Assembly (NCBI RefSeq): GCF_963921235.1
Contig: NC_086097.1
Location: 160,706,001-160,770,000, forward strand
Reading direction: 5' to 3'
Source of the DNA: Mobula hypostoma
Lineage: Eukaryota
DNA: 64,000 nucleotides
Shown here in pieces: positions 6,311 to 41,500 of the stretch. The translations under genes were made by a program, and so were the position numbers. The notes under the pieces were generated by a model. That model made no database searches. It was not told the origin of the DNA and saw nothing but the letters and a program-made list of their open reading frames with translations. The first letter of the stretch is position 1. Every line of letters starts with the position of its first letter.

Positions 6311-7901
6311 TAAAGAAGGATGCTGCATCTTATAATATATCCAGATGACAAATCAGCACGTAAGAAGTCAATTTACAAACGTAAATGTACCAAAGTAGTT
6401 TAGACTGGTTCAAATTTATCCTATTGGGTGGTTTACTAATTGCATGCAGCTGCAGTTGCATATCAAAGGAAATTAATCCATAAATGAACTGTACAAAAAG
6501 GAGAATGCATTGTTAGCATGGTAAAAATTGCTAAGATTGTGCCTCGAGCCTTTTTTTGGTTCAAATGAATTGGTGGTTTGTGCAAAAATTCCAAGGTTCT
6601 TCTAGTTTTGGCGACTTCTCATCTGTCTAATTTGATAGGGAAGATGATGCAGGCGGGCTAGGAATAAGGCTAATTATTATGGAATGTGGAATAAAGTTTG
6701 CAAGCTACTGTTGTATCTGCCTGTGGAACATTGGATAATGCAATTGAAAGAATGTGTTTTTCTTGCATAAACATCTCAATTTGATCAGCACACACTGAAG
6801 AAAACGGTGGCATCTTGATTATCTCACTGGTCTAGATTGAAAGAAGATGTTAAGTATCACAATGCCAGTTTGAAAAAATGATTTATTTTTATTTTTGAGT
6901 CAGTGATGATGACCATGAAACTTGACTGGTTCATTAACACCCTTTTAAGATTAGACGTTTTCTGTTTTTGCCCTACCTAACTTGTAAATGACTTCATTCA
7001 TACAATGTGCTTACCTTATTAGTGCCTACAAATGCCTTTCAGTTTATAAATGGACTTTCTCAGGATGAATTGTGTTTTTTACCTGCCCCTTTCCAAAATA
7101 AATATTTTAATTTAGGATTTGAAATCTGCAAAAGAATTCACAATTTAACCTGTTTCAATTTGCTAGATTACTGTTAAACCTTTGAGCAACTAATTTCACT
7201 GTCATTTCTAAAGATTCATATGTTCTACATCTTCCAATTAACTCATCTACAATGTCAGAATAAAACAGTTTAACTGAAGGTTACCGGTTTGTTGAAAGAT
7301 TAAATATTAACTTAATTGCGGCTTTAATTGCACTATTAAATAGTTTTGGAATTCTAAAATTAGATTTGCCTCCTTTTTTTCATATAATGATTTCAATTGT
7401 AATGCAATTCAAAATGTACAGTATTTGTTACTTTAGGTTACAATTATTTCCAGTTTTTTTCCATCTTTAAAACTAAATTAATTGATGCTATTTGTTGCTC
7501 ATGTTTGTAGCTTTCTATTGAAAGAAAAATAATGCAGCATATTACCTTCAGAGCACACTCAAGTTTCCTTTTGCTTCCATCCCTACCTACTGCTGTGGTG
7601 GTGGAATTTTACCTGAAAAGGCACATAAGGTTGCAAACATGAATTGTAACTTTAACCACATTTTTGTACGGTTCTGAAAGTAGTAATGCTCCTTGTAGGA
7701 ACTGTTAAATGGTGCTAGTGTTATCAGTAAATAACTTGGCTCAATACGAAAACCATTGGTGTCTCTAATATTAATAATCCTACAATTTAGCCTTACAATT
7801 TTGCCAAAATGATAAACTAGGCAGCTTCATAGTTGATTGACTTCATAACACTGCTTTTAAATTTTAATAGGAAAATATGAATAGCTGCTAGATCTATGTG
7901 A

Positions 7902-10900
7902 CTTTAAACTAGAATGGTTGGGGGGTGGGAATCAAATTAAAGCGGCTAGGTGTGAGGAGGTTAGTTCACAACAGAGGGATGGGAACCAGTGCAGAGAGAC
8001 AGAGGGGTGTAAAGTGAGCGTAGAAGCAAAAACTACAAAGGGGAAAAGTAAAAGTGGCAGGCCGACAAATCCAGGGCAAGCATTAAAAAGGGCTAAGAGA
8101 GTTGTAAAAGAGTGCCTGAAGGCTTTATGTGTCAATGCAAGGAGCATTCGTAATAAGGTGGATGAATTGAAAGTGCAGATTGTTATTAATGATTATGATA
8201 TAGTTGGGATCACAGAGACATGGCTCCAGGGTGACCAGGGATGGGAGCTCAACGTTCAGGGATATTCAATATTCAGGAGGGATAGACACGAAGGAAGGGG
8301 AGGTGGGGTGGCGTTGCTGGTTAAAAAAGAGATTAACGCAATAGAAAGGAAGGACATAAGCCGGGAAGATGTGGAATCGATATGGGTAGAGCTGCGTAAC
8401 ACTAAGGGGCGGAAGACGCTGGTGGGAGTTGTGTACAGGCCACCTAACAGTAGTAGTGAGGTCGGAGATGGTATTAAACAGGAAATTAGAAATGTGTGCA
8501 ATAAAGGAACAGCAGTTATAATGGGTGACTTCAATCTACATGTAGACTGGGTGAACCAAATTGGTAAAGGTGCTGAGGAAGAGGATTTCTTGGAATGTAT
8601 GCGGGATGGTTTTTTGAACCAACATGTCGAGGAACCGACTAGAGAGCAGGCTATTCTGGACTGGGTTTTGAGCAATGAGGAAGGGTTAATTAGCGATCTT
8701 GTCGTGAGAGGCCCCTTGGGTAAGAGTGACCATAATATGGTGGAATTCTTCATTAACATGGAGAGTGACGTAGTTAATTCAGAAACAAAGGTTCTGAACT
8801 TAAAGAGGGGTAACTTTGAAGGTATGAGACATGAATTAGCTAAGATAGACTGGCAAATGACACTTCAAGGATTGACGGTGGATATGCAATGGCAGGCATT
8901 TAAAGGTTGCATGGATGAACTACAACAATTGTTCATCCCAGTTTGGCAAAAGAATAAATCAAGGAAGGTAGTGCACCCGTGGCTGACAAGAGAAATTAGG
9001 GATAGTATCAATTCCAAAGAAGTAGCATACAAATTAGCCAGAGAAAGTGGCTCACCTGAGGACTGGGAGAAATTCAGAGTTCAGCAGAGGAGGACAAAGG
9101 GCTTAATTAGGAAGGGGAAAAAAGATTATGAGAGAAAACTGGCAGAGAACATAAAAACGGACTGTAAAAGCTTTTATAGATATGTAAAAAGGAAAAGACT
9201 GATAAAGACAAATGTAGGTCCCCTGCAAACAGAAACAGGTGAATTGATTATGGGGAGCAAGGACATGGCAGACCAATTGAATAATTACTTTGGTTCTGTC
9301 TTCACTAAGGAGGACATAAATAATCTTCCAGAAATAGTAAGGGACAGAGGGTCCAGTGAGATGGAGGAACTGAGCGAAATACATGTTAGTAGGGAAGTGG
9401 TGTTAGGTAAATTGAAGGGATTGAAGGCAGATAAATCCCCAGGGCCAGATGGTCTGCATCCCAGAGTGCTTAAGGAAGTGGCCCAAGAAATAGTGGATGC
9501 ATTAGTGATAATTTTTCAAAACTCGTTAGATTCTGGACTAGTTCCTGAGGATTGGAGGGTGGCTAATGTAACCCCACTTTTTAAAAAAGGAGGGAGAGAG
9601 AAACCGGGGAATTATAGGCCGGTTAGCCTAACGTCGGTGGTGGGGAAACTGCTGGAGTCAGTTATCAAGGATGTGATAACAGCACATTTGGAAAGCGGTG
9701 AAATGATCGGACAAAGTCAGCATGGATTTGTGAAAGGAAAATCATGTCTGACGAATCTCATAGAATTTTTTGAGGATGTAACTAGTAGAATGGATAGGGG
9801 AGAACCAGTGGATGTGGTATATTTGGATTTTCAAAAGGCTTTTGACAAGGTCCCACATAGGAGATTAGTGTGCAAACTTAAAGCACACGGTATTGGGGGT
9901 AAGGTATTGGTGTGGGTGGAGAATTGGTTAGCAGACAGGAAGCAAAGAGTGGGAATAAACGGGACCTTTTCAGAATGGCAGGCGGTGACTAGTGGGGTAC
10001 CGCAAGGCTCAGTGCTGGGACCCCAGTTGTTTACAATATATATTAATGACTTGGATGAGGGAATTAAATGCAGCATCTCCAAGTTTGCGGATGACACGAA
10101 GCTGGGTGGCAGTGTTAGCAGTGAGGAGGATGCTAAGAGGATGCAGGGTGACTTGGATAGGTTGGGTGAGTGGGCAAACTCATGGCAGATGCAATTTAAT
10201 GTGGATAAATGTGAAGTTATCCACTTTGGTGGCAAAAATAGGAAAACAGATTATTATCTGAATGGTGGCCGATTAGGAAAAGGGGAGGTGCAACGAGACC
10301 TGGGTGTCATTATACACCAGTCATTGAAAGTGGGCATGCAGGTACAGCAGGCGGTGAAAAAGGCGAACGGTATGCTGGCATTTATAGCGAGAGGATTCGA
10401 GTACAGGAGCAGGGAGGTACTACTGCAGTTGTACAAGGCCTTGGTGAGACCACACCTGGAGTATTGTGTGCAGTTTTGGTCCCCTAATCTGAGGAAAGAC
10501 ATCTTTGCCATAGAGGGAGTACAAAGAAGGTTCACCAGATTGATTCCTGGGATGGCAGGTCTTTCATATGAAGAAAGACTGGATGAACTGGGCTTGTACT
10601 CGTTGGAATTTAGAAGATTGAGGGGGGATCTGATTGAAACGTATAAGATCCTAAAGGGATTGGACAGGCTAGATGCAGGAAGATTGTTCCCGATGTTGGG
10701 GAGGTCTAGAACGAGGGGTCACAGTTTGAGGATAGAGGGGAAGCCTTTTAGGACCGAGGTTAGGAAAAACTTCTTCACACAGAGAGTGGTGAATCTGTGG
10801 AATTCTCTGCCACAGCAAACTGTTGAGGCCAGTTCATTAGCTATGTTTAAAAGGAAGTTAGATATGGCCCTTGTGGCTACAGGGGTCAGGGGGTATGGAG

Positions 10901-11002
10901 GGAAGGCTGGGTTCTGAGTTGGATGATCAGCCATGATCATAATAAATGGCGGTGCAGGCTCGAAGGGCCGAATGGCCTACTCCTGCACCTATTTTCTATG
11001 TT
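7902..11002 (+). mobile_element. Young CR1 LINE, 5'-truncated at the ORF1/ORF2 junction
   Basis: Intact ORF2, CR1 3' UTR with stem-loop and (TTTCTATG)n tail. 9-bp TSD TCTATGTGA at 7893-7901 and 11003-11011. Confidence 0.95.
7903..10917 (+). CDS. CR1 ORF2: APE endonuclease + reverse transcriptase (no in-frame ATG until 8521)
   Basis: Uninterrupted ~1000-codon frame with APE motifs (NARS, ITETW, YRPP, GDFN, SDH) and RT motifs (PGPDG, YRPVSL, QHGF, DFQKAFD, GVPQGSVLGP, FADD). The track start at 7918 is TTG. Confidence 0.95.
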   Translation, partial: FKLEWLGGGNQIKAARCEEVSSQQRDGNQCRETEGCKVSVEAKTTKGKSKSGRPTNPGQALKRAKRVVKECLKALCVNARSIRNKVDELKVQIVINDYDIVGITETWLQGDQGWELNVQGYSIFRRDRHEGRGGGVALLVKKEINAIERKDISREDVESIWVELRNTKGRKTLVGVVYRPPNSSSEVGDGIKQEIRNVCNKGTAVIMGDFNLHVDWVNQIGKGAEEEDFLECMRDGFLNQHVEEPTREQAILDWVLSNEEGLISDLVVRGPLGKSDHNMVEFFINMESDVVNSETKVLNLKRGNFEGMRHELAKIDWQMTLQGLTVDMQWQAFKGCMDELQQLFIPVWQKNKSRKVVHPWLTREIRDSINSKEVAYKLARESGSPEDWEKFRVQQRRTKGLIRKGKKDYERKLAENIKTDCKSFYRYVKRKRLIKTNVGPLQTETGELIMGSKDMADQLNNYFGSVFTKEDINNLPEIVRDRGSSEMEELSEIHVSREVVLGKLKGLKADKSPGPDGLHPRVLKEVAQEIVDALVIIFQNSLDSGLVPEDWRVANVTPLFKKGGREKPGNYRPVSLTSVVGKLLESVIKDVITAHLESGEMIGQSQHGFVKGKSCLTNLIEFFEDVTSRMDRGEPVDVVYLDFQKAFDKVPHRRLVCKLKAHGIGGKVLVWVENWLADRKQRVGINGTFSEWQAVTSGVPQGSVLGPQLFTIYINDLDEGIKCSISKFADDTKLGGSVSSEEDAKRMQGDLDRLGEWANSWQMQFNVDKCEVIHFGGKNRKTDYYLNGGRLGKGEVQRDLGVIIHQSLKVGMQVQQAVKKANGMLAFIARGFEYRSREVLLQLYKALVRPHLEYCVQFWSPNLRKDIFAIEGVQRRFTRLIPGMAGLSYEERLDELGLYSLEFRRLRGDLIETYKILKGLDRLDAGRLFPMLGRSRTRGHSLRIEGKPFRTEVRKNFFTQRVVNLWNSLPQQTVEASSLAMFKRKLDMALVATGVRGYGGKAGF

Positions 11003-11699
11003 TCTATGTGATCGTTTAGGTGGCTTTGCATTGAAGAATGTTTGTAAATTTGAAACAATAGGAATTATTACATTGAGTAAGTATGTTGGATATACCCTGC
11101 AGGCTGAAAATATAATTTCTACAATGCTTTTAAAACTGAAGTTGGGAACTGTGCTGCATTATGTTACTGACTTGTGGGATTCGTTCGCGTTCTTTGCTCC
11201 AGGGAAGAATGAAGCAGGAACCAGATGCTTCTGATGTGAAGGAGAATTGAAGGGCATCAGTAAAGTTATTTTCATTTACATGTAGAGGTCAGTCCTGTTG
11301 TTGTCTTGAGAGCTGCGGATAGGTCGTAGGCAAAATTATTAACAGTACATTATAGTTAATAAGTTATGCATAAATTTGGTTTGGTATTCAGCTGTGAAAC
11401 CTCTGGTCTGTATATTTGTAAAAGTTGTTAAGTTGCCACCACATCTTCTGTTTTTTTTAAAAGTCTGATTTGCATTTTATGAATAATGATTGGGATGATT
11501 ACATTGAAGTAGCTTTATATCCATTAGGTGTCATATTATGTGCGGAAGTTAGTTTATCCCATATACCTTATCTGACCTACTGGTTTCCAAGTTGTTGGCA
11601 GTAAAAAGATTTTTTAATTTTCTTGGCAGAAGTGGTGATTCAGCAGGTAAATGACACAATCTATCACGCACTAACCTGCTTTAGAAGTTATTGAATTAT

Positions 11700-20556: not shown

Positions 20557-21802
20557 ATTAGCAGAAGTTAGAGAAGTCAATGTTCATGCCATCAGGTTGG
20601 AGGCTCCCCAGACGGAATATAAGGTGTTATTCCTCCAACCTGAGTGTAGCTTCATCTTTACAGTAGAGGAGGCCGTGGATAGACATGTCAGAATGGGAAT
20701 GGGATGTGGAATTAAAATGTGTGGCCACTGGGAGATCCTGCTTTCTCTGGCAGACAGAGCGTAGGTGTTCAGCAAAGCGGTCTCCCAGTCTGCATCGGGT
20801 CTCGCCAATATACAGAAGGCCACATCGGGAGCACCAGACGCAGTATATCGCCCCAGCCGACTCACAGGTGAAGTGTCGCCTCACCTGGAAGGACTATCTG
20901 GGGCCCTGAATGGTGGTAAGGGAGGAAGTGTAAGGACATGTGTAGTACTTGTTCCGCTTACAAGGATAAGTGCCAGGAGGGAGATCAGTGGGGAGGGATA
21001 GGGGGGACGAATAGACAAGGGAGTCGCGTAGGGAGCGATCCTTGCGGAAAGCAGAGAGAGCGGGGGAGGGAAAGATGTGCTTAGTGGTGGGATCCAGTTG
21101 GAGGTGGCGGAAGTTATGGAGAATAATATGTTGGACCCAGAGGCTGGTGGGGTGGTAGGTGAGGACCAGAGTAACCCATTCCTAGTGGGGTGGCGGGAGG
21201 ATGGAGTGAGAGCAGATATGCGTGAAATGGGGGAGATGCGTTTGAGAGCAGAGTTGATGGTGCAGGAAGGGAAGCCCCTTTCTTTAAAAAAGGAGGACAT
21301 TTCCCTCATCCTGGAATGAAAAGCCTCATCCTGCGAGAAGATGCGGCAGAGATGGAGGAATTGCAAGAAGGGGATGGCATTTTTGCAAGAGACAGGGTGA
21401 GAAGAGGAATAGTCCAGATAGCTGTGAGAGTCAGTAGGCTTATAGTAGACATCAGTAGATAAGCTGTCTCCAGAGACAGAGACAGAAAGATCTAGAAAGG
21501 GGAGGGAGGTGTCGGAAATGGACCAGGTAAACTTGAGGGCAGGATGAAAGTTGGAGGCAAAGTTAATAAACTCAACGAGCTCAGCATGCTTGCAGGAAGC
21601 AGCGCCAATAACAAAAAGGCAGGCATAGCTCGGACCCATGCATGTGCCCATAGCTACACCTTTAGTTTGGAGGAAGTGGGAGGAGCCAAAGGAGAAATTA
21701 TTAAGAGTAAGGACTAATTCCGCTAGTCGGAGCAGAGTGGTGGTAGAGGGGAACTGGTTAGGTCTGGAATGCAAAAAGAAGCAGAGAGCTTTGAGACCTT
21801 CC
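20557..21802 (-). pseudogene. PLE RT/GIY-YIG ORF remnant lacking the YIDD segment
   Basis: GVAMGTCMGPSYACLFV|IGAASC, LPFLD, YYKPTD, IYCVWCSRCGLLYIGET. Frameshifts and stops present. Confidence 0.85.
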
Positions 21803-22930
21803 GGCTTTGTGGAGCAATCTATGTTCTGAGCCTATTCTGGTATCTGTCCCCCATTTTTCCTTCGCTACATCGACGACTGCATTGGCGCTGCTTCTTGCAC
21901 GCATGCTGAGCTTGTTGAGTTTATTAACTTTGCCTCCAACTTTCACCCTGCCCTCAAGTTTACCTGGTCCATTTCTGACACCTCCCTCCCCTTTCTAGAT
22001 CTTTCTGTCTCCATCTCTGGAGACAGCTTATCTACTGATGTCTACTATAAGCCTACCGACTCTCACAGCTATCTGGACTATTCCTCTTCTCACCCTGCCT
22101 CTTGCAAAAATGCCATCTCCTTCTCGCAATTCCTCCATCTCCGCCGCATCTGCTCTCAGGATGAGGCTTTTCATTCCAGGACGAGGGAGATGTCCTTTTT
22201 TAAAGAAAGGGGCTTCCCTTCCTCCACCATTAACTCTGCTCTCAAACGCATCTCCCCCATTTCACGCACATCTGCTCTCACTCCATCCTCCCGCTACCCC
22301 ACTAGGAATAGGGTTACCCTGGTCCTCACCTACCACCCCACCAGCCTCTGGGTCCAACATATTATTCTCCATAACTTCCGCCACCTCCAACTGGATCCCA
22401 CCACTAAGCACATCTTTCCCTCCCCCGCTCTCTCTGCTTTCCGCAAGGATCGCTCCCTACGCGACTCCCTTGTCTATTCGTCCCCCCTATCCCTCCCCAC
22501 TGATCTCCCTCCTGGCACTTATCCTTGTAAGCGGAACATGTGCTACACATGCTCTTACACTTCCTCCCTTACCACCATTCAGGGCCCCAGATAGTCCTTC
22601 CAGGTGAGGCGACACTTCACCTGTGAGTCAGCTGGGTTGATATACTGCGTCCGGTGCTCCTGATGTGGCCTTTTATATATTGGCGAGACCTGACGCAGAC
22701 TGGGAGATCGTTTTGCTGAACACCTACGCTCTGTCTGCCAGAGAAAGCAGGATCTCCCAGTGGCCACACATTTTAATTCCACATCCCATTCCCATTCTGA
22801 CATGTCTATCCATGGCCTCCTCTACTGTAAAGATGAAGCTACACTCAGGTTGGAGGAATAACACCTTATATTCCGTCTGGGGAGCCTCCAACCTGATGGC
22901 ATGAACATTGACTTCTCTAACTTCTGCTAA
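21803..22930 (+). pseudogene. PLE RT (YIDD) / Cys linker / GIY-YIG ORF remnant
   Basis: FLRYIDDCIG, LPFLD, YYKPTD, CKRNMCYTC linker (Neptune-like), IYCVRCS..LLYIGET, GMNIDFSNF. Several stops present. Confidence 0.85.
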
Positions 22931-25914: not shown

Positions 25915-27675
25915 CAAACAAGAGAAAATCTGCAGATGCTGGAAATCCAAGCAACACACACACAAAATACTGGAGGAACTGAGCAGGCCAGACAGCATCT
26001 ATGAAAACAAATACAGTCAACATTTCAGGCCAAGACCCTTCAGTGGGAATGAAGGAATGGAGAAATAAAGATGAGTAGATTTAAAAGGGGAGGGGAGGGA
26101 GAAACTCAGAGATAGTACAATAGACTTTTTGGGCCAAGCCTCTTCCTCAGAACTGGGGAAAAAAATGACGAGTCAATAAGAAGGTGGAGGAATTAGAGGA
26201 AGAAACACAAGGTGATAGGTGAAACCAGGAGTGGAGGGGTGAAGTAAAGAGCTGAATTTGATTGGTGAGAGACACAGGGCTGGAGAAGTGGGGAGTCTGT
26301 TAGGAAAGGACGGAAGGCCATGGAAGAAAGGGGGAGGAGTACCAAAGGGAGGCGATGGGCAGGTAAGGAGATAAAGTGAGAGGGAAACGGGAATGGTAAA
26401 GGGGGTGAGGACACATAATCGGAAGTTCAAGAAGTTGATGTTCATGCCATCAGGTTGGAGGCTACCCAGATGGAATATAAGGTGTTGTTCCTACCACTTG
26501 AGTGTGGCCTCATTGTGACAGTAGAAGAGGGCATGGATTGGCATGTTGAAATGGGAATGGGAAGTGGAATTAAAAAAGGTGGCCACTGGGAGATCCCGCT
26601 TTTTCTGGCGGATGAAGTGTAGGTGCTCGACGAAGCAATTTCCTAGTCTACGTCAGGTCTCACCAATATATAGAGGCCACACGGAGAGCACCGGACACAT
26701 TTTATGACCAACAGACTCGCAGGTGAAATGTCACCTCACCTGGAAGAACTGTTTGGGTCCCTGAATGGTAGTGAAGAAGGAAGTGTAGGGGCAGTTGTAG
26801 TACTTGCTCCACTTGCAAGAATAAGTGCCAGGAGGGAGATCGATGGGGAGGGATGAGTAGACAAGGGAGTCGTGTAGTGAGCAATCCCTCATGAAAGCAG
26901 AAAGGGGAAGGAGGGAAAGATGTGCGTGGTGGTGGGAACCCGTTGAAGATGGGGGAAGTTACAAAGAATTATGTGCTGGTCTTAGAGGCTGGTAGGGTGG
27001 TAGGTGAGGACAAGAGGAATCGAATCACTGGTGATGTGGCGGGAGGATGGAGTGAGAGCAGACATGTGTGAATGGAAGAAATGCAGTTGAGGGCAGCATT
27101 GATGGTGGAGGTAGGGAAGCCCCCTTCTTTGAAAAGAAGGACATCTTTGTTCTGGAATGAAAAGCCTCAACCTGAGAGCCGATGTGGCGGAGACTGAGGA
27201 ATTGAGAGAAGGGGTGATGTTTTTACAGGTAACGGTGGGAAGAGGTATAGTCCATGTAGCTGTGAAAGTCCATGGGTTTATAATAGACATCAGCACATAG
27301 GCTGACTCCAGAGATAGCGACAGTGAGATTGAGAAAAGGAAGGGCGGTGTCGGAAATGGACCGGGTAAATTTGAGGGCAAGGTAGAAGTTGGAGGCAAAG
27401 TGGATGAAGTTGACAAGTTTAGCATGGATGCAGGAAGCAGTACCAATGTAGTCATCGATGTAGTGTAGGAAAAGTGGGGGATGGACACCAATGCAGTCTT
27501 GGAACATAGACTGTTCCACATAGCTGACAAAAAGGCAGGCATAGCTGTGACCCATGCAAGTGCCCATGGCTACACTATTTTGAGAAGGAAGTAGGAGGAG
27601 CCGTAGGATAAATTATTAAGAGTGAGGGCAAGTTCCACTAGACAGAGGAGAGTAGTGATGGAGGGGAGCTGGTTA
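25915..27675 (-). mobile_element. Older PLE (RT + GIY-YIG) with partially duplicated terminus
   Basis: MGTCMGHSYACLFV, LHYIDDYIG, YYKPMD. Two decayed HHR-like segments at about 26015-26050 and 26115-26155. Confidence 0.85.
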
Positions 27676-30644
27676 CGCTATGTCTGGTTGCACTCAGACA
27701 GTCACAGTTTATATTAGAGAAGTTGACAACAACCTTATTGTTTTTACATCTTTCATTTATCTGCCTGCATATCTGTTCCTCAATGTCCTGGTGGGTATTG
27801 TAGGGTCTGTAATACAATTCCATCAGTGATGGCACCCCTCCTATTTTAGAGTTCTACCCATATTGATTCAGTGGATGAGCCCTCCGTTGTGTCCCCTATG
27901 GGTGAAGCTGTGATGTTATCCCTGATTAGTAGTGCAACTCCCTCTTTTACTTCCCTCTGTCTTTTCTGAAACATCAAGACTGTGGGACATTGAGTGCACA
28001 TTAGTGTCCCTCTCAACTAAGTCTCTGTATTGGCTGCAACATCATAATTCCCTGTATCGATCTTTGCTCTTAAATTCATCACATTTACTCATAAATACTC
28101 AAAGCATTAAAATAGATCAAGCTATCCATCCCATCATATCTGTGACTTTACTCCTGCCTCTTTTTTTTTTACATGCCCTCACATCTACCTTCCTCTCCAT
28201 CCTCCATCATTTCTGATTTCATGTTTGATTCCCATCCCACTGACAAACTAGTTTAAACCCTCCCAACTAGCATGAGCAAACCTCCCAGCCAGGTTCTTGG
28301 TTTCCCTTCCAGTTTAGGTGCAAGCTGTCCCTTTTATACAGGTCAATATTGCCCCAAAAAAGGTTCCAATTATCCAAGAACCTGAAATCCTGCCCCCGCA
28401 TCAGTTCCTCAGCCATTCATTCAAATGTATTATCATCCTACTCCTGCCCTGAATAGCATATGATACTGTGATCCAGGGATTCTTGCAACCGTCTGTGATC
28501 TCTACAAATTTGCTCCTCTAATTCTCGCTGGCTTTTCTGTGGTCTATAATGTAATGCCGTTAATGTAATCATCCCTTTCTTCATCAGTTCCACCCATTTA
28601 GCCTCTCCAGTCTGTCTTGTCTGAGCACTGTTGTGCTGTTTTCCCTGACTAGTTAAACCAACCTTCCTATTTAATCCCTTGCCCTTTATTACATCTAAAA
28701 CAGTTGAACTCCAGAACATTGAGCTGCCAGATCTCCTGCAACCCACTCTCACTAATGGCTACAATGTCATAATTCCACATGCTGATCCATGCCCTAAGCT
28801 TGTCCGCCTTTCCTATAATACTACTTGCATCAAAATACAGTGGAAACTTGTTAATTGGGACACATAAGAACACAAGAACAGAAGGAATAGGAGTAGGAGT
28901 AGGCCATCTGGCTCCTCAAGCCTACTCGGTCATGAGTAATACCATGTCTAATCTGGCCATGGACTCATTTCCACCTACCTGTCTTTTCCCCATAACTCTT
29001 AATTCCCTTACTATGCAAAAATTTGTCCAACCTTGTCTTAAATATATTTACTGAGGTAGCCTTTACTGCTTCATTAGGCAAAGAATTCCACTGATTCAGC
29101 ACTCTCAAGGAAAAGCAGTTCCTCCTCTTCTCCATCCTAAATCTATTGCCCCGAATCTTGAGACTATGTCCCCTAGTTCCAGTCTCGCCTTCCAGTGGAG
29201 ACAACCTTCCTGCCTCTATTTTATCTATCCCTTTCATAATTTCATGTTTCTTTTAGATTTTCTCTCATTCTTCTGAATTCCAGTGAGTACAGTGCCAGGC
29301 GTCTCAATCTCTCCTCATATTCTAACCCCCTCATCTTTGGAATTAACTCCTCTGCACCACCTCCAAAACCAGTATATTCTTCAAGTAAGGAGACCAGAAG
29401 TGCACACAGTACTCTCAAGTACCAGATGCAGCCTCTCAAGTACCCTGTACAGTTGCAGCATAACTTCCCTGCTCTTAAATTCATTTCCTCACACAATGAA
29501 GGCCAGCATTCTATTTGTCTTCCCGATAGCCTGCTGCACCTGTAAACCAACCTTTGGTGATTCATGCACTAGCTCTACCAAGTCCCTCTGCACAGCAGCA
29601 TGCTGAAATATTTTAGTATTTAAATAATAATCTGTTCTTTCATTTTTCCTTCCAAAGTGGATGACCTCATATTTACCAACATTATACTCCATCTGCTAGA
29701 CCCTTGCCCTCTCACTTAACCAACTAATCTCTGCAGACTCTCCGTACTTCTGCACAATTTGCTTTTCCACTCAACTTAGTATCATCAGCAAACTTGGATA
29801 CGCTACACTCTGTCCCCTCTTCTGGATCGTTAATGTATATTGTGAACAGTTGTCATCCTAGCACCAACCCCTGCGGCACACTGCTCACCACTGATTGCCA
29901 ACCAGAGTATCACCCGTGTATCCCAATTCTCTGCATCCTTACCTTATGGGTAAGTCTTTTATGTGGCACCTTATCGACCACCTTCTGGAAATCCAAGAAA
30001 ATAACGTCCGTCTGTTCCCCTCTATCTACTACGCTCGTTATATCCTCAGAGAACTCCTGTAAGTTTGTCAAACAGGACCGGCCTTTGCTGAGTCCATGCT
30101 GTGTCTGCCTGATGGATTCATTTCTTTCCAGATGCCTCGCTACTACTTCTTTGATGATAGCTTCAAGCATTTTCCCAACTGCAGATGTTAAACTGGCCTT
30201 TTGCCTACATCCTTTTTTGAACAGTGGTGTGACATTCGCAATCTTCCAAACTGCTGGGACCTGCCCTGAGTCCAAAGAATTTTGGTAAATCATCATCAAA
30301 GCGTCTATTATAATTTTTTCCATTTCTTTCAGTACCCTGGGATGCATTTCATCAAGACCAGGGGACTTGTCTATCTTCAGGCCCACAAGCTTTCTCAGTA
30401 CTACCTCTTTAGTGGTAGCTATTATATCGAGGTCCTCACCTCCTATTGCATCCATAATATCTCTCTTTGGCATGTTAGATGTGTCCTCCGCCATGAAGAT
30501 CAACACAAAATAGTCATTCAAAGCCTCAGCCATTTCCTCATTATCCAATATCAATTACTCTTTCTTGTCTTCCAAGGAGCCTACATTCACTTTAGCCACC
30601 CTTTTCGGCTTTATATAATTACAAAAACTTGTATTATCCCTTTT

Positions 30645-31921
30645 AACACACATCAAAGTTGCTGGTAGACGCAGCAGGCCAGGCAGCATTTCTAGGAAGA
30701 GGTACAGTCGACATTTCAGGCCGAGACCCTTCGTCAGGACTAACTGAAGGAAGAGCTAGTAAGAGATTTGAAAGTGGGAGGGGGAGGGGGAGATCCAAAA
30801 TGATAGGAGAAGACAGGAGGGGGAGGGATGGAGCCAAGAGCTGGACAGGTGATTGGCAAAAGGGATATGAGAGGATCATGGGACAGGAGGCCCAGGGAGA
30901 AAGACAAGGGGGGGGGTTAACCCAGAGGATGGGCAAGGGGTATAGTCAGAGGGACAGAGTGAGAAAAAGGAGAGTGAGAGAAAGAATGTGTGTATAAAAA
31001 TAAATAACGGATGGAGTACGAGGGGGAGGTGGGGCATTAGCAGAAGTTAGAGAAGTCAATGTTCATGCCATCAGGTTGGAGGCTACCCAGATGAAATATA
31101 AGGTGGTGTTCCTCCAACCTGAGTGTGGCTTCATCTTTACAGTAGAGGAGGCCGTGGATAGACATGTCAGAATGGGAATGGGATGTGGAATTAAAATGTG
31201 TGGCCACTGGGAGATCCTGCTTTCTCTGGCAGTCAGAGCATAGGTGTTCAGCAAAGCGGTCTCCCAGTCTGCGTCGGGTCTTGCCAATATATAGAAGGCC
31301 ACATCGGGAGCACCTGACGCAGTATATCACCCAGCGGACTCACAGGTGAAGTGTCGCCTCACCTGGAAGGACTGTCTGGGGCCCTGAATGGTGGTAAGGG
31401 AGGAAGTGTAAGGGTATGTGTAGCACTTGTTCCGCTTACAAGGATAAGTGCCAGGAAGGAGATCAGTGGGGAGGGATGGGGGGGACGAATGGACAAGGGA
31501 GTCGCATAGGGAGCGATCTTTGCTGAAAGTGGGGGGGGGGAGGGAAAGATGTGCTTAGTGGTGGGATCCCGTTGGAGGTGGCGGAAGTTACGGAGAATAA
31601 TATGTTGGACCCTGCGGCTGGTGGGGTGGTAGGTGAGGACCAGTGGAACCCTATTCCTAGTGGGGTGGCAGGAGGATGGAGTGAGAGCAGATGTGCGTGA
31701 AATGGGGGAGATGCATTTGAGAGCAGAGTTGATGATGGAGGAAGGGAAGCCCCTTTCTTTAAAAAAAGGAGGACTTCTCCCTCGTCCTGGAATGAAAAGT
31801 CTCATCTTGAGAGCAGGTACGGCGGAGGAATTGCGAGAAGGGGATGGCATTTTTGCAAGAGGCAGGGTGAGAAGAGGAATAGTCCAGATAGCTGTGAGAG
31901 TCAGTAGGCTTATAGTAGACA
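30645..31921 (-). mobile_element. 5'-truncated PLE lacking the terminal ~35-nt tail
   Basis: GIY-YIG ORF 31037-31330 and RT thumb. Starts at AACACAC. TSD TATTATCCCTTTT/TATTATCTCTTTT at 30632-30644 and 31922-31934. Confidence 0.9.
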
Positions 31922-34900
31922 TATTATCTCTTTTTATATTTTGTGGTAGTTTATTTTCATAATCTAACTCCCCTTTCTTTATTGCTCACTTAGTGGCACT
32001 GTTGCTTATTAAAATTTTCTCAATCTTCCAGTTTCCCACTACTCTTGGCGACTTTGTATGCACAAGCTTTTAGTTTGGTGCCTTCTTTTATTTCCCTAGT
32101 TATCCAAGGCTGGCTCTCCCCAGCCTTGCAGTCCTTGCTTTTAACTGGAATATACTTCTGTCGAGCACTGAAAAATCTCTTTGAAAATCTTCCACTGTTC
32201 CTCAACTGTCCCACCATATAGCCTGTGTTCCCAATCATCAACACTAGCCAAATCCTCCCAATCCCGTTGTTGTAGTCTCCATTGTTTAGCCATAATACAC
32301 TGGTTTTAGATAGAACTATTGCACCCTCCACTTGTATGAGAAATTCAGTCATACTGTGATCACTCTTTCCAGGAGGATCCCTAACTACAACATCACTAAT
32401 TTTGCCTGTCTCATTGCACAGGGCCAGATCTAAGATAGCACGTCCCCTTTAGGTTCAGTAACATGCTGTTCAAGAAAGCCATCACGGATGCACTCTGAAG
32501 TTCTCCTCAAGACTGCCTCAACCAGCTTGATTCACCCAATCTATGTTCAAGTTAGTCCTTCATGATAATTGCTGTTCCATTCTTACATGCGTCAGATATT
32601 TCTGTGCATCTGGTCAGGGAGAGTGAGGAGGTGATAGAGAGGAGCTATAGGCAGGTAGTCACATCAGGGCCTGGTGAGACAGATAAGGGGGTAACAGTCA
32701 AGAGAGGGAAGGGCAGGAGTCAGAGGCTAGATAGCACCCCTGTGGCTGTACCCCTTGACAATAAGTACTCCTGCTTGAGTACTGTTGGGGGGAACGGCCT
32801 ACCTGGGGGAAGCAACAGTGGCTGCGCCTCTGGCACAGAGTCTAGCCCTGTGGCTCAGAAGGGTAGGGAAAGGAAGAGGACGGCAGCGGTGATAGGAGAC
32901 TCTATAGTTAGGGGGTCATACAGGAGATTCTGTGGATGCAGGAAAGAAACACGGATGGTAGTTTGCCTCTTAGGTGCCATGGTCTGGGATGCTTCTGATC
33001 ATGTCCAAGATGTCCTGAAGTGAGAAGGAGAACAGCCAGAGGTTGTGGTACATATTGGTACCAACGACATGTCGGAAAAGGGAGGAGGTCCTGAAACCAG
33101 ACTACAGGGAGTTAGGAAGGAAGTTAGGAAACAGGACCACAAAAGTAGTCATCCGGGATTACTGCCTGTGCCACATGACAGTGAGTATAAGAATAGAGTG
33201 AGGTGGAGGATAAATGCGTGGCTGAGGGATTGGAGCAGGGGGCAGGGATTCAGATTCCTGGATCATTATGACCTCTTTTGGGGCAGATGTGACCTGTAGA
33301 AAAAGGACGGGTTGTACTTGAATCCCAGGGGGACCAATATCCTGGCAGGGAGGTTTATAAGGCTACTGGGGAGAGTTTAAACTAGGATTGCTGGGGGGGT
33401 GGGCGGTGGGTGGGAACCAAACTGAAGAGATGGTTAGCTCACCAATAGAGAAAGCTTGGAGACAGTGCGAGTGGGAGGATAGGTAGGTGTTAGAGAAGGG
33501 ACATGTTCAGACCGATGGTTTCAGGGGTGTTTATTTTAATGCAAAGAGTATTATGAACAAAGCGGATGAGCTTAGAGCATGGATCGGTACTTGGAGCTAT
33601 GATGTTATGGCCATTACAGAGACTTGGATGGTTCAGGGGCAGGAGTGGTTACTTCAAGTGCCAGGCTATAGGTGTTTCAGAAAGGACAGGTAGGGAGGCA
33701 AAAGAGGTGGGGGCGTGGCACTGTTGATCAGAGATGGTGTGACAGCTGTAGAAAAGAAGGAAGACATGAAGGGATTGTCTACGGAGTCTCTGTGGGTGGA
33801 AGTTAGGAACAGGAAGGAGTCAATAAAAAGCTGTCTGTTTTTATAGACCACCCAATAGTAACAGGGACATTCAGGAGCGGGTAGGGAGACAGATTCTGGA
33901 AAGGTGGGATAATAACAGGGTTGTCGTGGTGGGAGATCTTAATTTCCCAAATATTGATTGGCATGTCCCGAGAGTGACGGGTTTAGATGTGGTGGAGTTT
34001 GTTAGGTGTGTTCAAGAAGGTTTGTCGACACAATATGTAGATAAGTCTACAAGAGGAGATGCTGTACTTCATCTGGTATTGGGAAATAAACCTGGTCAGG
34101 TGTCAGATCTGTCAGTGGGAGAGCATTTTGGAGATGGTGATCGCAACTCTATCTCCTTTACCAGAGCAATAGGAACAGACAAGTTAGGAAAGCGTTTAAT
34201 TGGAGTAAGGGAAAATATGAGGCTATTAGGCAGGAACTTGGAAGCATAAATTGGAAACAGATGTTCTCAGGAAAATGTACGGAAGAAATGTGGCAAATGT
34301 TCACGGGATATTTGCGTGGAGTTCTGCATAGGTATGTTCCAATGAGACAGGGAAAGGATGGTAGGGTACATGAACTGTGGTGTAGAAAAGCTGTTGTAAC
34401 TCTAGTCAAGAAGAAAGGAAGAGCTTACAAAAGGTTCAAAAAGCTAGGTAATGATAGAGATCTAGAAGATTATAAGGCTAGCAGGAAGGAGCTCAAGAAA
34501 GAAATCAGGAGAGCCAGAAGGGGCCATGAGAAGGCCTTGGCGAACAGGATTAAGGAAGACCCCAAGGCATTCTACAAGTATGTTAAGAGCAAGAGGATAA
34601 GACGTGAGAGAAGAGGACCAATCAAGTGTGACAGTGAAAAAGTGTGTATGGAACCGGAGGAGATAGTAGAAGTACTTAATGAATACTTTGCTTCAGTATT
34701 CACTACGGTAAAGGATCTTGGTGATTGTAGAGATGACTTATACCGGACTGAAAAGCTTGAGCATATAGACATTAAGAAAGAGGATTTGCTGGAGCTTTTG
34801 GGAAGCATCAAGTTGGATAAGTCACCAGGACCGGACAAGATGTACCACAGGCTACTGTGGGAAGCGAAGGAGGAGATTGCTGAACCTCTGGCGATGATCT

Positions 34901-35427: not shown

Positions 35428-36590
35428 CATAGAAACATAGAAAATGGGTGCAGGAGTAGGCCATTCGGCCCTTTGAGCCTGCTCCGCCATTTATTATGAT
35501 CATGGCTGATCATCCAACTCAGAACCCTGCACCAGCCTTCCCTCCATACCCCCTGATCCCCGTAGCCACAAGGGCCATATCTAACTCCCTCTTAAATATA
35601 GCCAATGAACCGGCCTCAACTGTTTCCTGTGGCAGAGAATTCCACAGATTCACCACTCTCTGTGTGAAGAAGTTTTTCCTAATCTCAGTCCTAAAAGGCT
35701 TCCCCTTTATCCTCAAACTGTGACCCCTCGTTCTGGACTTCCCCAACATCGGGAACAATCTTCCTGCATCTAGCCTGTCCAATCCCTTTAGGATTTTATA
35801 CGTTTCAATCAGATCCCCCCTCAATCTTCTAAATTCCAACGAGTACAAGCCTAGTTCATCCAGTCTTTCTTCATATGAAAGTCCTGCCATCCCAGGAATC
35901 AATCTGGTGAACCTTCTTTGTACTCTCTCTATGGCAAGGATGTCTTTCCTCAGATTAGGGGACCAAAACTGCACACAATACTCCAGGTGTGGTCTCACCA
36001 AGGCCTTGTACAACTGCAGTAGTACCTCCCTGCTCCTGTACTCGAATCCTCTTGCTATAAATGCCAGCATACCATTCGCCTTTTTCACTGCCTGCTGTAC
36101 CTGCATGCCCACTTTCAATGACTGGGGTATAATGACACCCAGGTCTCGTGGCACCTCCCCTTTTCCTAATCAGCCACCATTCAGATAATAATTTGTTTTC
36201 CTGTTTTTGCCACCAAAGTGGATAACTTCACATTTATCCACATTAAATTGCATCTGCCATGAATTTGCCCACTCACCCAACCTATCCAAGTCACCCTGCA
36301 TCCTTTTAGCATCCTCCTCACAGCTAACACTGCCGCCCAGCTTCGTGTCATCCGCAAACTTGGAGATGCTGCATTTAATTTCCTCATCCAAGTCATTAAT
36401 ATATATTGTAAACAACTGGGGTCCCAGCACTGAGCCTTGCGGTACCCCGCTAGTCACCGCCTGCCATTCTGAAAAGGTCCTGTTTATTCCCACTCTTTGC
36501 TTCCTGTCTGCTAACCAATTCTCTATCCACATCAATACCCTACCCCCAATACCGTGTGCTTTAAGTTTGCACACTAATCTCCTGTGTGGG
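35428..36590 (-). mobile_element. Young 5'-truncated CR1, same subfamily as 7902-11002
   Basis: Near-identical reverse complement of about 9852-11008, with one frameshift near 36160. Flanked by TCAT at 35427-35430 and 36606-36609. Confidence 0.95.
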
Positions 36591-38458
36591 TTGCTCTCCT
36601 CTCCATCATGCCTTACGAGCCTGATTGAATTTTTTTGAGAATGTGACTAAACACATTAATGAAGGTAGAGCAGTAAGTGTAGTGTATATGAATTTCAGCA
36701 AGGCATTTGAAAAAGTACCCCCTGCAAGGCTTATTGAGAAAGTAAGGAGGCATGGGATCCAAGGGGACATTGCTTTATGGATCCAGAAATCGCTTGCCCA
36801 CAGAAGGCAAAGAGTGGTTGTAGACGGGTCATATTCTGCATGGAGGTCGGTCAACAGTGGTGTACCTCAGGGATCTGTTCTGGGACCCTTACTCTTCGTG
36901 ATTTTCATGTATGACCTGGATGAAGAAGTGGAGGGATGGATTAGTAAGTTTGCTGATGACACAAAGGTTGGGGGTGTTGTGGATAGTGTGAAGGGCTGTC
37001 AGAGGTTACAGCGGGACATTGTTAGGATGCAAAACTGGGCTGAGAAGTAGCAGATGGAGTTCAACCCAGATAAGTGTGAAGTGGTTCGTTTTGGTAGGTC
37101 AAATATTATGACAGAATATAGTATTAATGGTAGGACCCTTGGCAGTGTGGAGGATCAGAGGGATCTTGAGATCCGAGTCCATAGGACATTCAGAGCTGCT
37201 GCTGCTGCTATTGCAGGTTGACTCTGTGGTTAAGAAAGCATACGGTGCATTGTCCTTAATCAATTGTGGGATTGAGTTTGGGAGCCGAGAGGTAATGTTG
37301 CAGCTATATAGGACCCTGGTCAGACCCCACTTGGACTACTGTGCTCAGTTCTGGTCGCCTCACTATAGGAAGGATATGGAAACCATAGAAAGGATGCAGA
37401 GGAGATTTACAAGGATGTTGCCTGGATTAGGGAGCATGCCTTATGAGAATAAGTTGAGTAAACTTGGCCTTTTTTTCTTGGAGTGATGAAGGATGAGAGG
37501 TGACCTGATAGAGGTGTATAAGATGATGAGAGGCATTGATTGTGTGGATAGGCAGAGGCTTTTTCCCGGGGCGGAAATGACTGGCACAAGAGGGCACAGT
37601 TTTAAGGTGCTTGGAAGTATGTACAGAGGAGATAATCGGGGCAAGTTTTTTTATGCAGAGAGTGGTGAGTGCGTGGAATGGGCTGCCGGCAATGGTGGTG
37701 GAGGCGGATATGGTAAGGTCTTTCGGACGCTCCTGGACAGGTACATGGAGCTCAGAAAAATAGAGGGCTTTGAGTAACCTAGGTAATTTCTCAGGTAAGG
37801 ACATGTTCAGCACAGCTTTGTGGACCGAAGGCCTGTATTGTGCTGTAGGTTTTCTATGTTTCTGTTGCCTATGCCACTGTAATGTTATTATTCGGTGGCC
37901 GATAGACAACTCCTATGAGTGATATTTTCCCTTTACTATTCCTAATCTCTACCCAGATGGATTCAACATTCTGCTCCTTAGATCTTATATCGTTTCTCAC
38001 TATCGCCCTGATCTCATCTTTAATTAAGCGTGCTACCCCACCTCCCTTACCTTTCTGATATCCTTGGATTTTTAATTCCCAATCCTCTCCACCCTGCAAC
38101 CATGTCTCTGTAATGCCACTAAATCATACCTCCTTTGTATTGAAGTTCTCTGCCCTTGTTTTGAATACTACGGGTATTCAAATAAAGTCCCCTACACTCA
38201 TTGTGCTTTTAAAATCTTCTAATCTTTTACCCTTTTGCACTTGACTTTATTTCACTCCATTCTTACTTTTCTCTTTTATATCTTTTGTTAGGGACCAGTA
38301 CATCTTAGAGTTTCATGGAAATAATTTTTTGAAAAAGTATTTTAAAAATGGCAAACTACCATTTAACTGAGTAACAAATTATGTATTTAAATGAAATACA
38401 GAACAAATTGGAATGTTACCCATACTACTATGATACTATAAAACTGTGTATTAGTTCA

Positions 38459-38590: not shown

Positions 38591-41500
38591 AAGTTTGATA
38601 TTGTTATCAATGGATCAATTCATCCAGTATTCACTTCTGTGTTCTTTTGATTGACTTGCATGAACAAAATCAGTGTAGAGACTTCATGCAGATAGTAGAC
38701 TTCCTTCATTCATTTTCAATTGTTGTGTTTTCCAAATCTTCATTTTCATTGTAAAGTTCAAGATGATTATCAATACCTTCAAGTTCTTTGTGATTCCTAA
38801 CTTGTAGTAATGTAATCGTTTCATTTTCAGTCATGGCTGTTTCTGGTATCTTCAAGCCTAAGTGCTTGAAACTGCAGCTGGGTTGTGTCTCTGCTCATTT
38901 CTCACTAACTCACTGTGACAAAAATCACTGTTTTTTGAGCAGAAACACACATCACTAATGCTATTAAAAAAGAAATTGTTCGCTCTAAGCACAGTGTTGT
39001 CTAATGGCCTCACAAGTGCAAGCAACTAGTGCTAGTTAGAAACTGTCCCAGTTAAGCAAGATAATGTCCCAAATAAACAAAAGGAATTCCAGCTATTTTC
39101 TTGATTGGTTTTTGTTCTTTAAAAGGTGTTCCTAATTTATAGCTGCCCTGATTAACCAATGGCTCAATTAATTGAAATCCACTGTATCGACATTTCAGAA
39201 CATTAGTCCCACCATGCTCTTCCTTTGGATTCTAGATTTTGTAGCCTTAACAATATTTTTCCCCACAACCATTCCATTATCTGCTCTAGTGTCCTGGTTC
39301 CCATCTCCGTGCAACTGTAGTTTAACGCCTTCCCCCACCCCCCAATGCCCATGTAGCACTAGCAAAACTTCCTGCTAGGATATTAGTCCCCCTCCAGCTC
39401 AGGTTCAAACCCCATCCAGTGTGTACAGATCCCACCTTCCTTGGAAGAGCCCAATGATTCAGAAATCTGAAGCCCTCCTTCCTGTACCATCTCCTTATCC
39501 ACACTTGCTATGTCTTGCCTCACTAGAACGTGATATAGATAGCAATCCTGAGATCACAATTCTGATGGTCCTGTCCCTTAAACTAACTCCCAGAACTCAG
39601 TTTGCAGGACCTTATCACCCTTCCTAACCATGTTATTGGGACTGACGTGGACACGACCTGTGGCTGCTCACCCTCCCAATTAAGAATGTTATGCATTCAA
39701 TACCAGATCTCCCTGACCCTGGCACATACCATCTGGGAATTTAATTCTCGTACACAGAACCTTTTGTCTGTTCCCTTAACCATTGCATCCCCATCACTGC
39801 AGCTCACCTCTTCTCTTACGCCCCCCACCCACCCCCCACTCCTCATTTCCCTTCTGAGCCTCAGAGCCAAAGTGTCAGAAACCTGACTGATGTGACTTTC
39901 CTCTGCTAGATTATTTCCCCCACCCTCATCCTCCCAACAGTATCCAAAGCAGTATGTATATGTATACTTGGCGGGGGTGGGGAGGGGAGAAATGACCACA
40001 GAGGTACTCTGCACTGGCTGCCTATCTCCTTTCTCCCCCAATGGTGTGTCAATAATAAACCAGCTAACCAAATTAGATGCTTTTTTTGAGTTCATTTGTA
40101 CGTGCTCCATTTGTACTTGTGTGTTTTAAATTGTTAAGCAATGATTTCTTCACTTAAATTCTAAGATGACGTCAAGCCTGACCCCCTCACCACCCCACTT
40201 CCAAACATAAATTTAAGCATACAAAACAGTATGGAAAGAGCGCTGCTTCTGTAGAAGTATGGTACTCTGGAGAGCTGCTCCAACATAGGTGTGGAGGGAG
40301 AAGTGCTTTGGCAGAGGTTACACCAAACTTGTACCAATGTGCAGTTAAAGTTCCCAGGGTATTCCTTGGGAGGAAAAAAAAAGTAAATATTTATTTTTTT
40401 ATGTCAAGTTACTACTCATTTTCTTGCTTTGAATTTATATAGTTGCAAAGGATGACTTTTGATTCAGCTGTTAAATTTGTTGAATAATTTCAGATCTGAT
40501 GATAGAGTATGAAATCGAGTATATTTTCTAATCTTTATGTAAATCAATATCTTCTGTATTTTCTTTATCAATTGTTATAATTCATGATGTGCTTATATTT
40601 CGTGCACAGACTCGCCCACAATATGTCAAATTTTCTTTTCTCACTGCCGTAACTTGGTAAAAGATGTTTCAAAAGTAGGTCACCTTATAGTATTAAAGTG
40701 ACCATATATTTTTCAGATGCCTCTCTCAAAATGCAGAGATTTTTTGATGAAAGATAGTCAAAGTAAATTTATTATCAAAGTACCTCCACGTCTATCGAAT
40801 AGTGGGAAAACCTGGTTAATGGTATCAATGATGCATGCAATTTTATGCTATGAAGAGAGGTTGAAATTAACAATTGATCACTGCATCCCAGAAATCAAAA
40901 CTCACTTGGCTGAAGTTATTCGTTCATGCTAAAAGACCGTTCTATGAACCAATCTTAAAAAAAATAAAACTTTGGCCTTTAGTCTTAAATTGTAAATGTA
41001 TTCCATATCTTCCAGACTGTTCCTGCATTTTTATCACATTAGTGTACCTTACAGATTGCGAATGCGCCCTCATTTGCTGTGCACCCATTCTAGCTAGTCC
41101 TTGTCCCCTAATCCATTTATGTGTAGAAATAAAAATTTGCATCGTGTACTGTTTTTTAATAAAATGAAATTGTCCTAGACAAAGGAATGCCAAAAATAAT
41201 TGCCTGATTATTTTAGAAGAAAATCTATAGTTCTTCTAACTAGGTATTCACTGTCAATAGTCATCTAAAAATGAGTAAATTATGTTCTACATTTATTGTC
41301 TCTTTTGCTCTGTCTAATATCCACACTTAACCTCACTTATCAACCATGACTTGCTTAACTGTGAGGTAGTTTCAAACCATATCTGAGCACTCTCTGTGCT
41401 GGGTTGTGCAAATTCATGTACTGGTGTCAAAGAATAATAAAAAAATTATTTGGTTGTGCCATTTGTGGAAAAAGTTCTAATATCCAGGAATTGTATTCAG

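Follow-up and report, generated by a model that had tools for sequence, protein, structure and literature searches.

How ORF2 of LINE retrotransposons is translated is called an open question in passages of two papers (PMC3894237, PMC3708506), and the worked examples given in the excerpts consulted involve either reinitiation (L1, SART1) or 2A peptides. SART1 uses a UAAUG stop-start and mammalian L1 reinitiates across a 63-nt spacer, according to the relevant passage of PMC5972666. The initial annotation of the locus studied here set its elements apart from L1, taken there to reinitiate. A contrast with LINEs in general is not absolute, since the legend of a review states that a -1 frameshift is needed for ORF2 translation in the Dictyostelium elements TRE5-A and TRE3-A (PMC5911963); the excerpts of PMC5006619 do not state it. 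For Penelope-like elements, a figure legend in PMC8557442 notes that a frameshift, accompanied by a pseudoknot, can set ORF1 apart. The available passages of a 2016 review of frameshifting (PMC5009743) assign L1 to unusual initiation, do not mention CR1, rank U_UUA_AAC with the heptamers at which mammalian ribosomes shift most readily, and give natural use of G-quadruplexes in frameshifting as not known. They also describe PRRSV, where nsp1-beta and PCBP stimulate frameshifting on CCCANCUCC, a motif located 11 nt downstream of the slip site. No other repeat is as common as CR1 in the chicken genome, according to the excerpts consulted, and those of four CR1-related papers (PMC11835228, PMC2734521, PMC8665684, PMC3905857) present two ORFs but do not say how ORF2 is translated. 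We found no report of CR1 frameshifting in the literature searched; the founding papers (Haas 1997, Kajikawa 1997) lie outside this search and may hold an earlier mention.

The window, a stretch of 64,000 nucleotides of the genome of the ray Mobula hypostoma (NC_086097.1, positions 160,706,001 to 160,770,000), contains a CR1-type copy at approximately 7898-11011 on the forward strand. A direct check of the sequence places the heptamer and stop, TTTAAACTAG, at 7903-7912. Upstream of them, the sole remnant of ORF1 is five nucleotides long (7898-7902) and marks the 5'-truncation point of the element in an alignment with 29 sisters. The slippery heptamer U_UUA_AAC (7903-7909) corresponds to the last two ORF1 codons (Leu-Asn) of full-length sisters, and is followed by the ORF1 stop (7910-7912), which is TAG in this copy and TAA in other families, and by a G5-N2-G3 tract (7920-7929), a candidate stimulator 10 nt 3' of the heptamer. 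The ORF2 frame, in -1, is intact over 1004 codons (7903-10917, with the TGA at 10915-10917) and starts as TTT AAA CTA GAA TGG. It opens with a charged, AUG-free linker of 71 codons (7903-8115) that precedes the APE endonuclease (PF03372, ~8173-8733) and the reverse transcriptase (PF00078, ~9592-10245). The 3' UTR, a short-repeat tail and the 3' target-site duplication complete the element (10918-11011). The heptamer, the open ORF2 frame, its first ATG at 8521 (within the endonuclease, at MGDFN) and an in-frame TTG at 7918 had all been reported in the initial annotation and are present as described. An ATG at 7914 is out of frame, opens a frame of only 8 codons and is specific to the family of this copy, and was discarded as a start of ORF2.

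The same annotation placed the heptamer at the stop of ORF1. This is correct for full-length sisters, but not for the window copy, which has no ORF1. The copy shows one difference from the 29 sisters over 208 nt, and the match ends 5 nt above the heptamer, where host DNA begins. It is flanked by identical 9-bp target-site duplications (7893-7901 and 11003-11011), which mark it as a 5'-truncated insertion of the ordinary kind and of recent date. Both junctions show microhomology (7893-7902 and 10991-11011), as the duplication overlaps the 5' end by 4 nt and the repeat tail by 7 nt. Since there is no ORF1 to deliver ribosomes, this copy is unable to use the slip signal, and the signal was assessed on relatives of the copy. 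On the reverse strand, at 35519-36646, the window holds a nearly identical 3' fragment from this young family, located within or next to an older copy.

In full-length sisters, ORF1 encodes a protein of 311 residues with a zinc finger and an SGNH esterase (PF13472; sister L002), which matches the structure of the ZfL2-1 esterase (PDB 4C1B, E 2e-28) and has its closest named homologues in rays and sharks. The upstream frame ends in TLN and a stop (ACT TTA AAC TAG) in 29/29 sisters. A TGA two codons above the TTT closes the -1 frame, and the overlap of the two ORFs ahead of the ORF1 stop is limited to 13 nt; hence, any slip would be confined to the last few codons. The endonuclease is in the -1 phase in 57 of the 58 anchored loci of this family (family A, for which 59 loci were fetched besides the window copy). 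Two linker lengths occur within the family, 27 nt apart and in frame (L047, L049 and L052 vs L002). The features expected of CR1 are present: an ORF2 with APE endonuclease and reverse transcriptase, an esterase ORF1 (in L002), a short-repeat tail that is not poly(A), and 5' truncation. On this architecture, the element is probably CR1 rather than L2.

Other junctions are found in the window. The initial annotation listed the heptamer followed by TAG in two divergent subfamilies, and both copies are exact. The one at 33376-33385 (+) belongs to an older subfamily and follows a decayed esterase ORF1, but a frame break just upstream means that the ORF1 frame there no longer ends in LN. The other, at 28248-28257 (-), belongs to a third, old subfamily and reads AGRFAHASWEGLN followed by the stop. 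Two decayed junctions, also noted before, were confirmed at 61131-61140 (+) and 39317-39326 (-), and the exact heptamer is the commonest form among their relatives (11/30 and 10/29 anchored loci, respectively). More generally, it is the commonest form in four older sets, made of loci chosen by similarity to the other window copies (17/25, 15/29, 11/30 and 10/29 anchored loci), with scattered decay. The 10-mer of heptamer and stop, allowing one mismatch, is not above chance in the window (8 found for 6.8 expected; 36 of 100 shuffles reach 8), and the case therefore rests on the relatives. What is non-random about the 10-mer is its position at the ends of ORF1. The window also holds fragments of a different RT-type protein (20881-22607, 26982-27569 and 31359-31985), with an apparent inverted pair around 21830, which presumably derive from Penelope-like elements.

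To avoid circularity, we searched the Mobula hypostoma genome with a codon-blind pattern, defined at the amino acid level alone as the catalytic DGxHL motif followed by a Gly and by [L/I/F/M/V]-N-stop, at one spacing. This pattern matches 14,232 esterase-ORF1 ends, of which 13,082 (92%) read T-TTA-AAC-stop, these being copy numbers of related families and not independent events. Reversed-pattern controls gave no matches genome-wide. The first 100 of the 14,232 sites were taken as a detailed set; one was removed by a position filter (it also has the heptamer), and the heptamer is exact in 95 of the 99 analysed. These 99 sites fall into 23 sequence groups, 17 of them single-copy, which were weighted equally. 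The four free positions of the heptamer are 0.99-1.00 fixed across the groups, without synonymous variation of the Leu and Asn codons between families, in keeping with the nucleotide-level signal that the initial annotation had proposed. Over the same groups, fixation is just 0.53-0.90 at synonymous sites within the catalytic DGLHL motif, and the codon before the Leu occurs in no fewer than 8 forms, each with a final T. Eight group representatives share 59-83% identity over the final 69 nt of ORF1. The stop after the heptamer is TAA or TAG (group-weighted counts of 14.1 and 8.8), and never TGA. TTTAAAC occurs only once in 114 distinct non-CR1 sequences that fit the amino acid pattern, and their LN codons are varied. 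A scan of prokaryote genomes, used as a control, returned no locus with a CR1 match; its one exact heptamer is that of L368. At the level of the sequence, the heptamer is conserved as nucleotides beyond what the protein needs.

The modal distances between heptamer and endonuclease (129, 132, 144, 144, 213 and 240 nt) are all multiples of three that place the endonuclease in the -1 frame, so that every family has its modal linker length in the phase initially proposed. The median number of stops in the linker is 0 in this frame vs 2-8 in the other frames. Among the 92 copies with an endonuclease match, 68 are in phase; the remaining 24, which include 5 of the 13 single-copy groups, probably reflect decay. 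The -1 frame is closed 2-5 codons upstream of the heptamer in most copies. The linkers are only 12-44% identical between groups, charged, and poor in hydrophobic residues, as would be expected of a flexible tether. One linker (L399) has two endonuclease starts in tandem and is a probable chimera. Groups A, B, 1 and 2 share no in-frame AUG ahead of the endonuclease, and the first AUG of ORF2 in intact copies of families A and 1 is at codons 185-215, deep in the endonuclease. The TTG at 7918, which had been raised as a possible start, is not kept in position among groups and was ruled out as a conserved one. As ORF2 lies one base back and nearly always lacks a start codon, the reverse transcriptase is likely made by ribosomes slipping by -1. 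The layout, the conservation of nucleotides, the constant phase and the absence of a shared start codon, all of them established on the sequence, point to programmed -1 frameshifting as the probable source of a CR1 ORF1-ORF2 fusion, and we hold this reading with good confidence.

Alternatively, ORF2 could be made as a separate protein, by termination and reinitiation at a near-cognate codon a few codons past the stop, the heptamer and the tract serving to retain the ribosome. Such a mechanism was reported for SART1 and proposed, in an AUG-independent form, for L1 (passages of PMC5972666 and PMC3708506). The open -1 frame from the junction fits it equally, and an AUG or near-cognate codon occurs within codons 4-12 of the -1 frame in 14 of the 23 groups. 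However, the candidate start changes in place and identity from group to group, none being common in position across the 23, and it is absent from the other 9. Among the 99 copies, an in-frame AUG at the ORF1 stop itself is restricted to an old family (group 4: L272, L379 and L433). There, stop and start overlap as UAAUG in the ORF2 frame, as in SART1, and either route might be used, but even this family keeps the exact heptamer in two of its three copies. The word UGGGA, which we take to be the TURBS motif of caliciviruses, is found within the tract of most ray families and would also fit reinitiation. Yet TURBS acts upstream of the stop, whereas this word lies downstream of it and is absent from bird-type loci. 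Reinitiation also leaves unexplained why exactly the X XXY YYZ positions stay invariant when the preceding codon does not, and we regard it as improbable. Still less probable is that the block is an RNA or DNA cis-element (for packaging, protein binding, processing or splicing), or that LN serves the fold of the esterase, with ORF2 reached through splicing, a sub-genomic RNA or internal entry: the C-terminal LN is indeed conserved as protein, TTTAAAC-TAG looks like a branch point with an acceptor AG, and IRES-like entry was suggested for non-LTR elements in general (excerpt of PMC3894237), but protein needs cannot fix synonymous bases and the codons of a terminal LN are diverse in non-CR1 genes, a splice acceptor at the ORF1 stop is ruled out by the TAA of ~14 of the 23 groups, which lack the AG, and ORF2 would still require a start other than its deep first AUG.

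The conservation of the junction extends to other animals. From 120 homologues of ORF1, 84 have the catalytic motif and 80 of these a tail of normal length, which ends in LN in 73 cases. The LN-ending homologues include named proteins of sharks, rays, coelacanth, frogs, turtles, squamates and one bird (a hummingbird). The more distant homologues P0115, P0116 and P0119 lack the LN end, and two of them end in EFFR; ends of this type could hide a different, U-rich slip site, but a search for the corresponding DNA returned none. A scan of metagenomes gave at least 75 loci, with 11 CR1-like loci among the matches listed. Six of these 11 have the exact heptamer, and each of the other five has its own, unshared change in it. 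Since 9 of the 11 come from one bird-type data set, they amount to about three independent sources. The -1 frame continues from the junction into the endonuclease in four loci (L184, L188, L205 and L221). No relatives were found in the viral contigs searched. A weak search among four longer homologues revealed no naturally fused single ORF, all four being gene-model chimeras. In a stingray gene model (P0121), the esterase runs straight into FKL, linker and endonuclease, which is probably one copy with an indel. None of the data sets that contain the junction was listed as RNA. In contigs of four sequencing runs, which we guessed to be of RNA, there was no joint at the junction, and no change in heptamer or stop among the differences listed; we give this observation no weight as evidence.

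The heptamers of the window had been described as followed by G-rich tracts at loose distances of about 6-15 nt. The tract is present, but its spacing is tighter: in ray families, as in the most frequent bird-type form, G5-N2-G3 begins 7 nt downstream of the stop. There are 18,101 sites with the tract at this spacing genome-wide (1 in the control), whereas shifts of +3 and -3 nt give 131 and 39 sites, respectively, and most off-spacing sites among the matches listed look like changes in the length of the G-run. Many off-spacing matches come from one family (L445, L446, L450 and L451), in which the G-run starts ~2 nt earlier and is unstable in length. The residues encoded around the glycines of the tract vary, and a role of G-x-G in the peptide is possible. 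The distance between tract and slip site is thus fixed, although the remaining linker varies freely in length.

The idea that the tract forms part of a stimulatory hairpin did not survive folding of the downstream sequence. A conserved local hairpin was rejected on 12 ray representatives, which have z-scores from -3.0 to +1.6 in 50- and 90-nt windows (below -2 in just one of the 12) and no common fold. No long-range pairing partner of the tract was found at a common position in 51 near-full-length loci. For a G-quadruplex, also suggested initially, two-tier patterns just 3' of the site occur in only 7 of 19 representatives and three-tier ones in none; 14 of the 19 have a G-run score in the top 2% of local windows. 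A distant CR1-like element on the metagenome contig L184 keeps the heptamer and stop, and 11-33 nt beyond the heptamer it can form a G+C-rich hairpin of 9 bp (z -2.8). This corresponds to the classic layout of frameshift sites, and the hairpin, lying where the tract is found in vertebrate copies, suggests that the position may be functional.

Under programmed frameshifting, ribosomes on a full-length element would reach U_UUA_AAC directly before the stop of the esterase ORF1. Tandem slippage would then move tRNA-Leu from UUA to UUU and tRNA-Asn from AAC to AAA. A minority of ribosomes, having slipped by -1, would read through the charged linker into the endonuclease and the reverse transcriptase, with a predicted junction peptide ...T-L-N-L-E-W-L-G-G-G-N-Q..., while non-slipping ribosomes would yield ORF1p alone. 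A bare slippery heptamer usually shifts weakly. More tentatively, the tract 10 nt downstream may supply the pause, by means of a bound protein or a structure made of G only, and not by a Watson-Crick hairpin. A broader reading, in which esterase-type CR1 elements from rays to birds produce their reverse transcriptase as a gag-pol-like fusion stimulated by the linear G5-N2-G3 tract and not by a pseudoknot, is possible but doubtful in our judgement. The same doubt covers, jointly, its corollary that the tract would act through a bound protein of the host or the element, or through a minimal G-quadruplex.

The recoding-type signal is real and well conserved, even if it was flagged on a copy that is unable to use it. 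The slip signal is ~30 nt long, and at least 14,000 copies of the CR1 junction are present in the Mobula hypostoma genome. If frameshifting is confirmed, a fixed share of the esterase ORF1p, which binds membranes, would carry the reverse transcriptase as a tethered part, as happens with retroviral Gag-Pol. This would explain why CR1 ORF2 misses a proper start, and would change the annotation of CR1 and the design of retrotransposition assays. The tract, if a stimulator, would be an unusual one, and the broader reading, if it were true, would represent a natural and regulable frameshift stimulated by a G-tract and kept across jawed vertebrates.

The comparison with known systems places the element close to vertebrate CR1 (chicken CR1, turtle PsCR1, and ZfL2-1 for the esterase), with which it shares the esterase ORF1, the APE endonuclease and reverse transcriptase of ORF2, the 5' truncation, the short-repeat tail and the target-site duplication. 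Like SART1 and L1 (passage of PMC5972666), it is a two-ORF LINE on one mRNA, but it has overlapping frames without a spacer, and just 3 of 99 copies carry an in-frame AUG at the stop. Penelope-like elements belong to another class of retroelements, with a GIY-YIG endonuclease, and a pseudoknot is invoked for them in the legend mentioned above. Among APE-type non-LTR elements, TRE5-A and TRE3-A are the closest LINE precedent for a -1 frameshift giving access to ORF2, although they represent another clade and another host and lack the esterase ORF1, and the passage in PMC5911963 gives neither a slip sequence nor an assay. The likeness to coronavirus ORF1a/1b and retroviral gag-pol lies in the in-phase heptamer, which is U_UUA_AAC itself in IBV (passage of PMC5009743) and joins a structural or chaperone ORF to a polymerase. 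In contrast with these, CR1 has a stop directly after the heptamer and a linear G-tract, and no conserved 3' stem-loop or pairing partner; as judged from folding, its signal fails the conserved-structure test of this frameshift class. PRRSV differs in that the CR1 tract is G-rich and not C-rich, and has no known binding protein, so that the parallel is an analogy only: in both, the shift would rely on a short linear motif of low complexity, set at a constant distance of 11 nt in PRRSV (PMC5009743, in part) and 10 nt in CR1. In its working, however, the CR1 signal would resemble the -1 site of retroviruses and coronaviruses.
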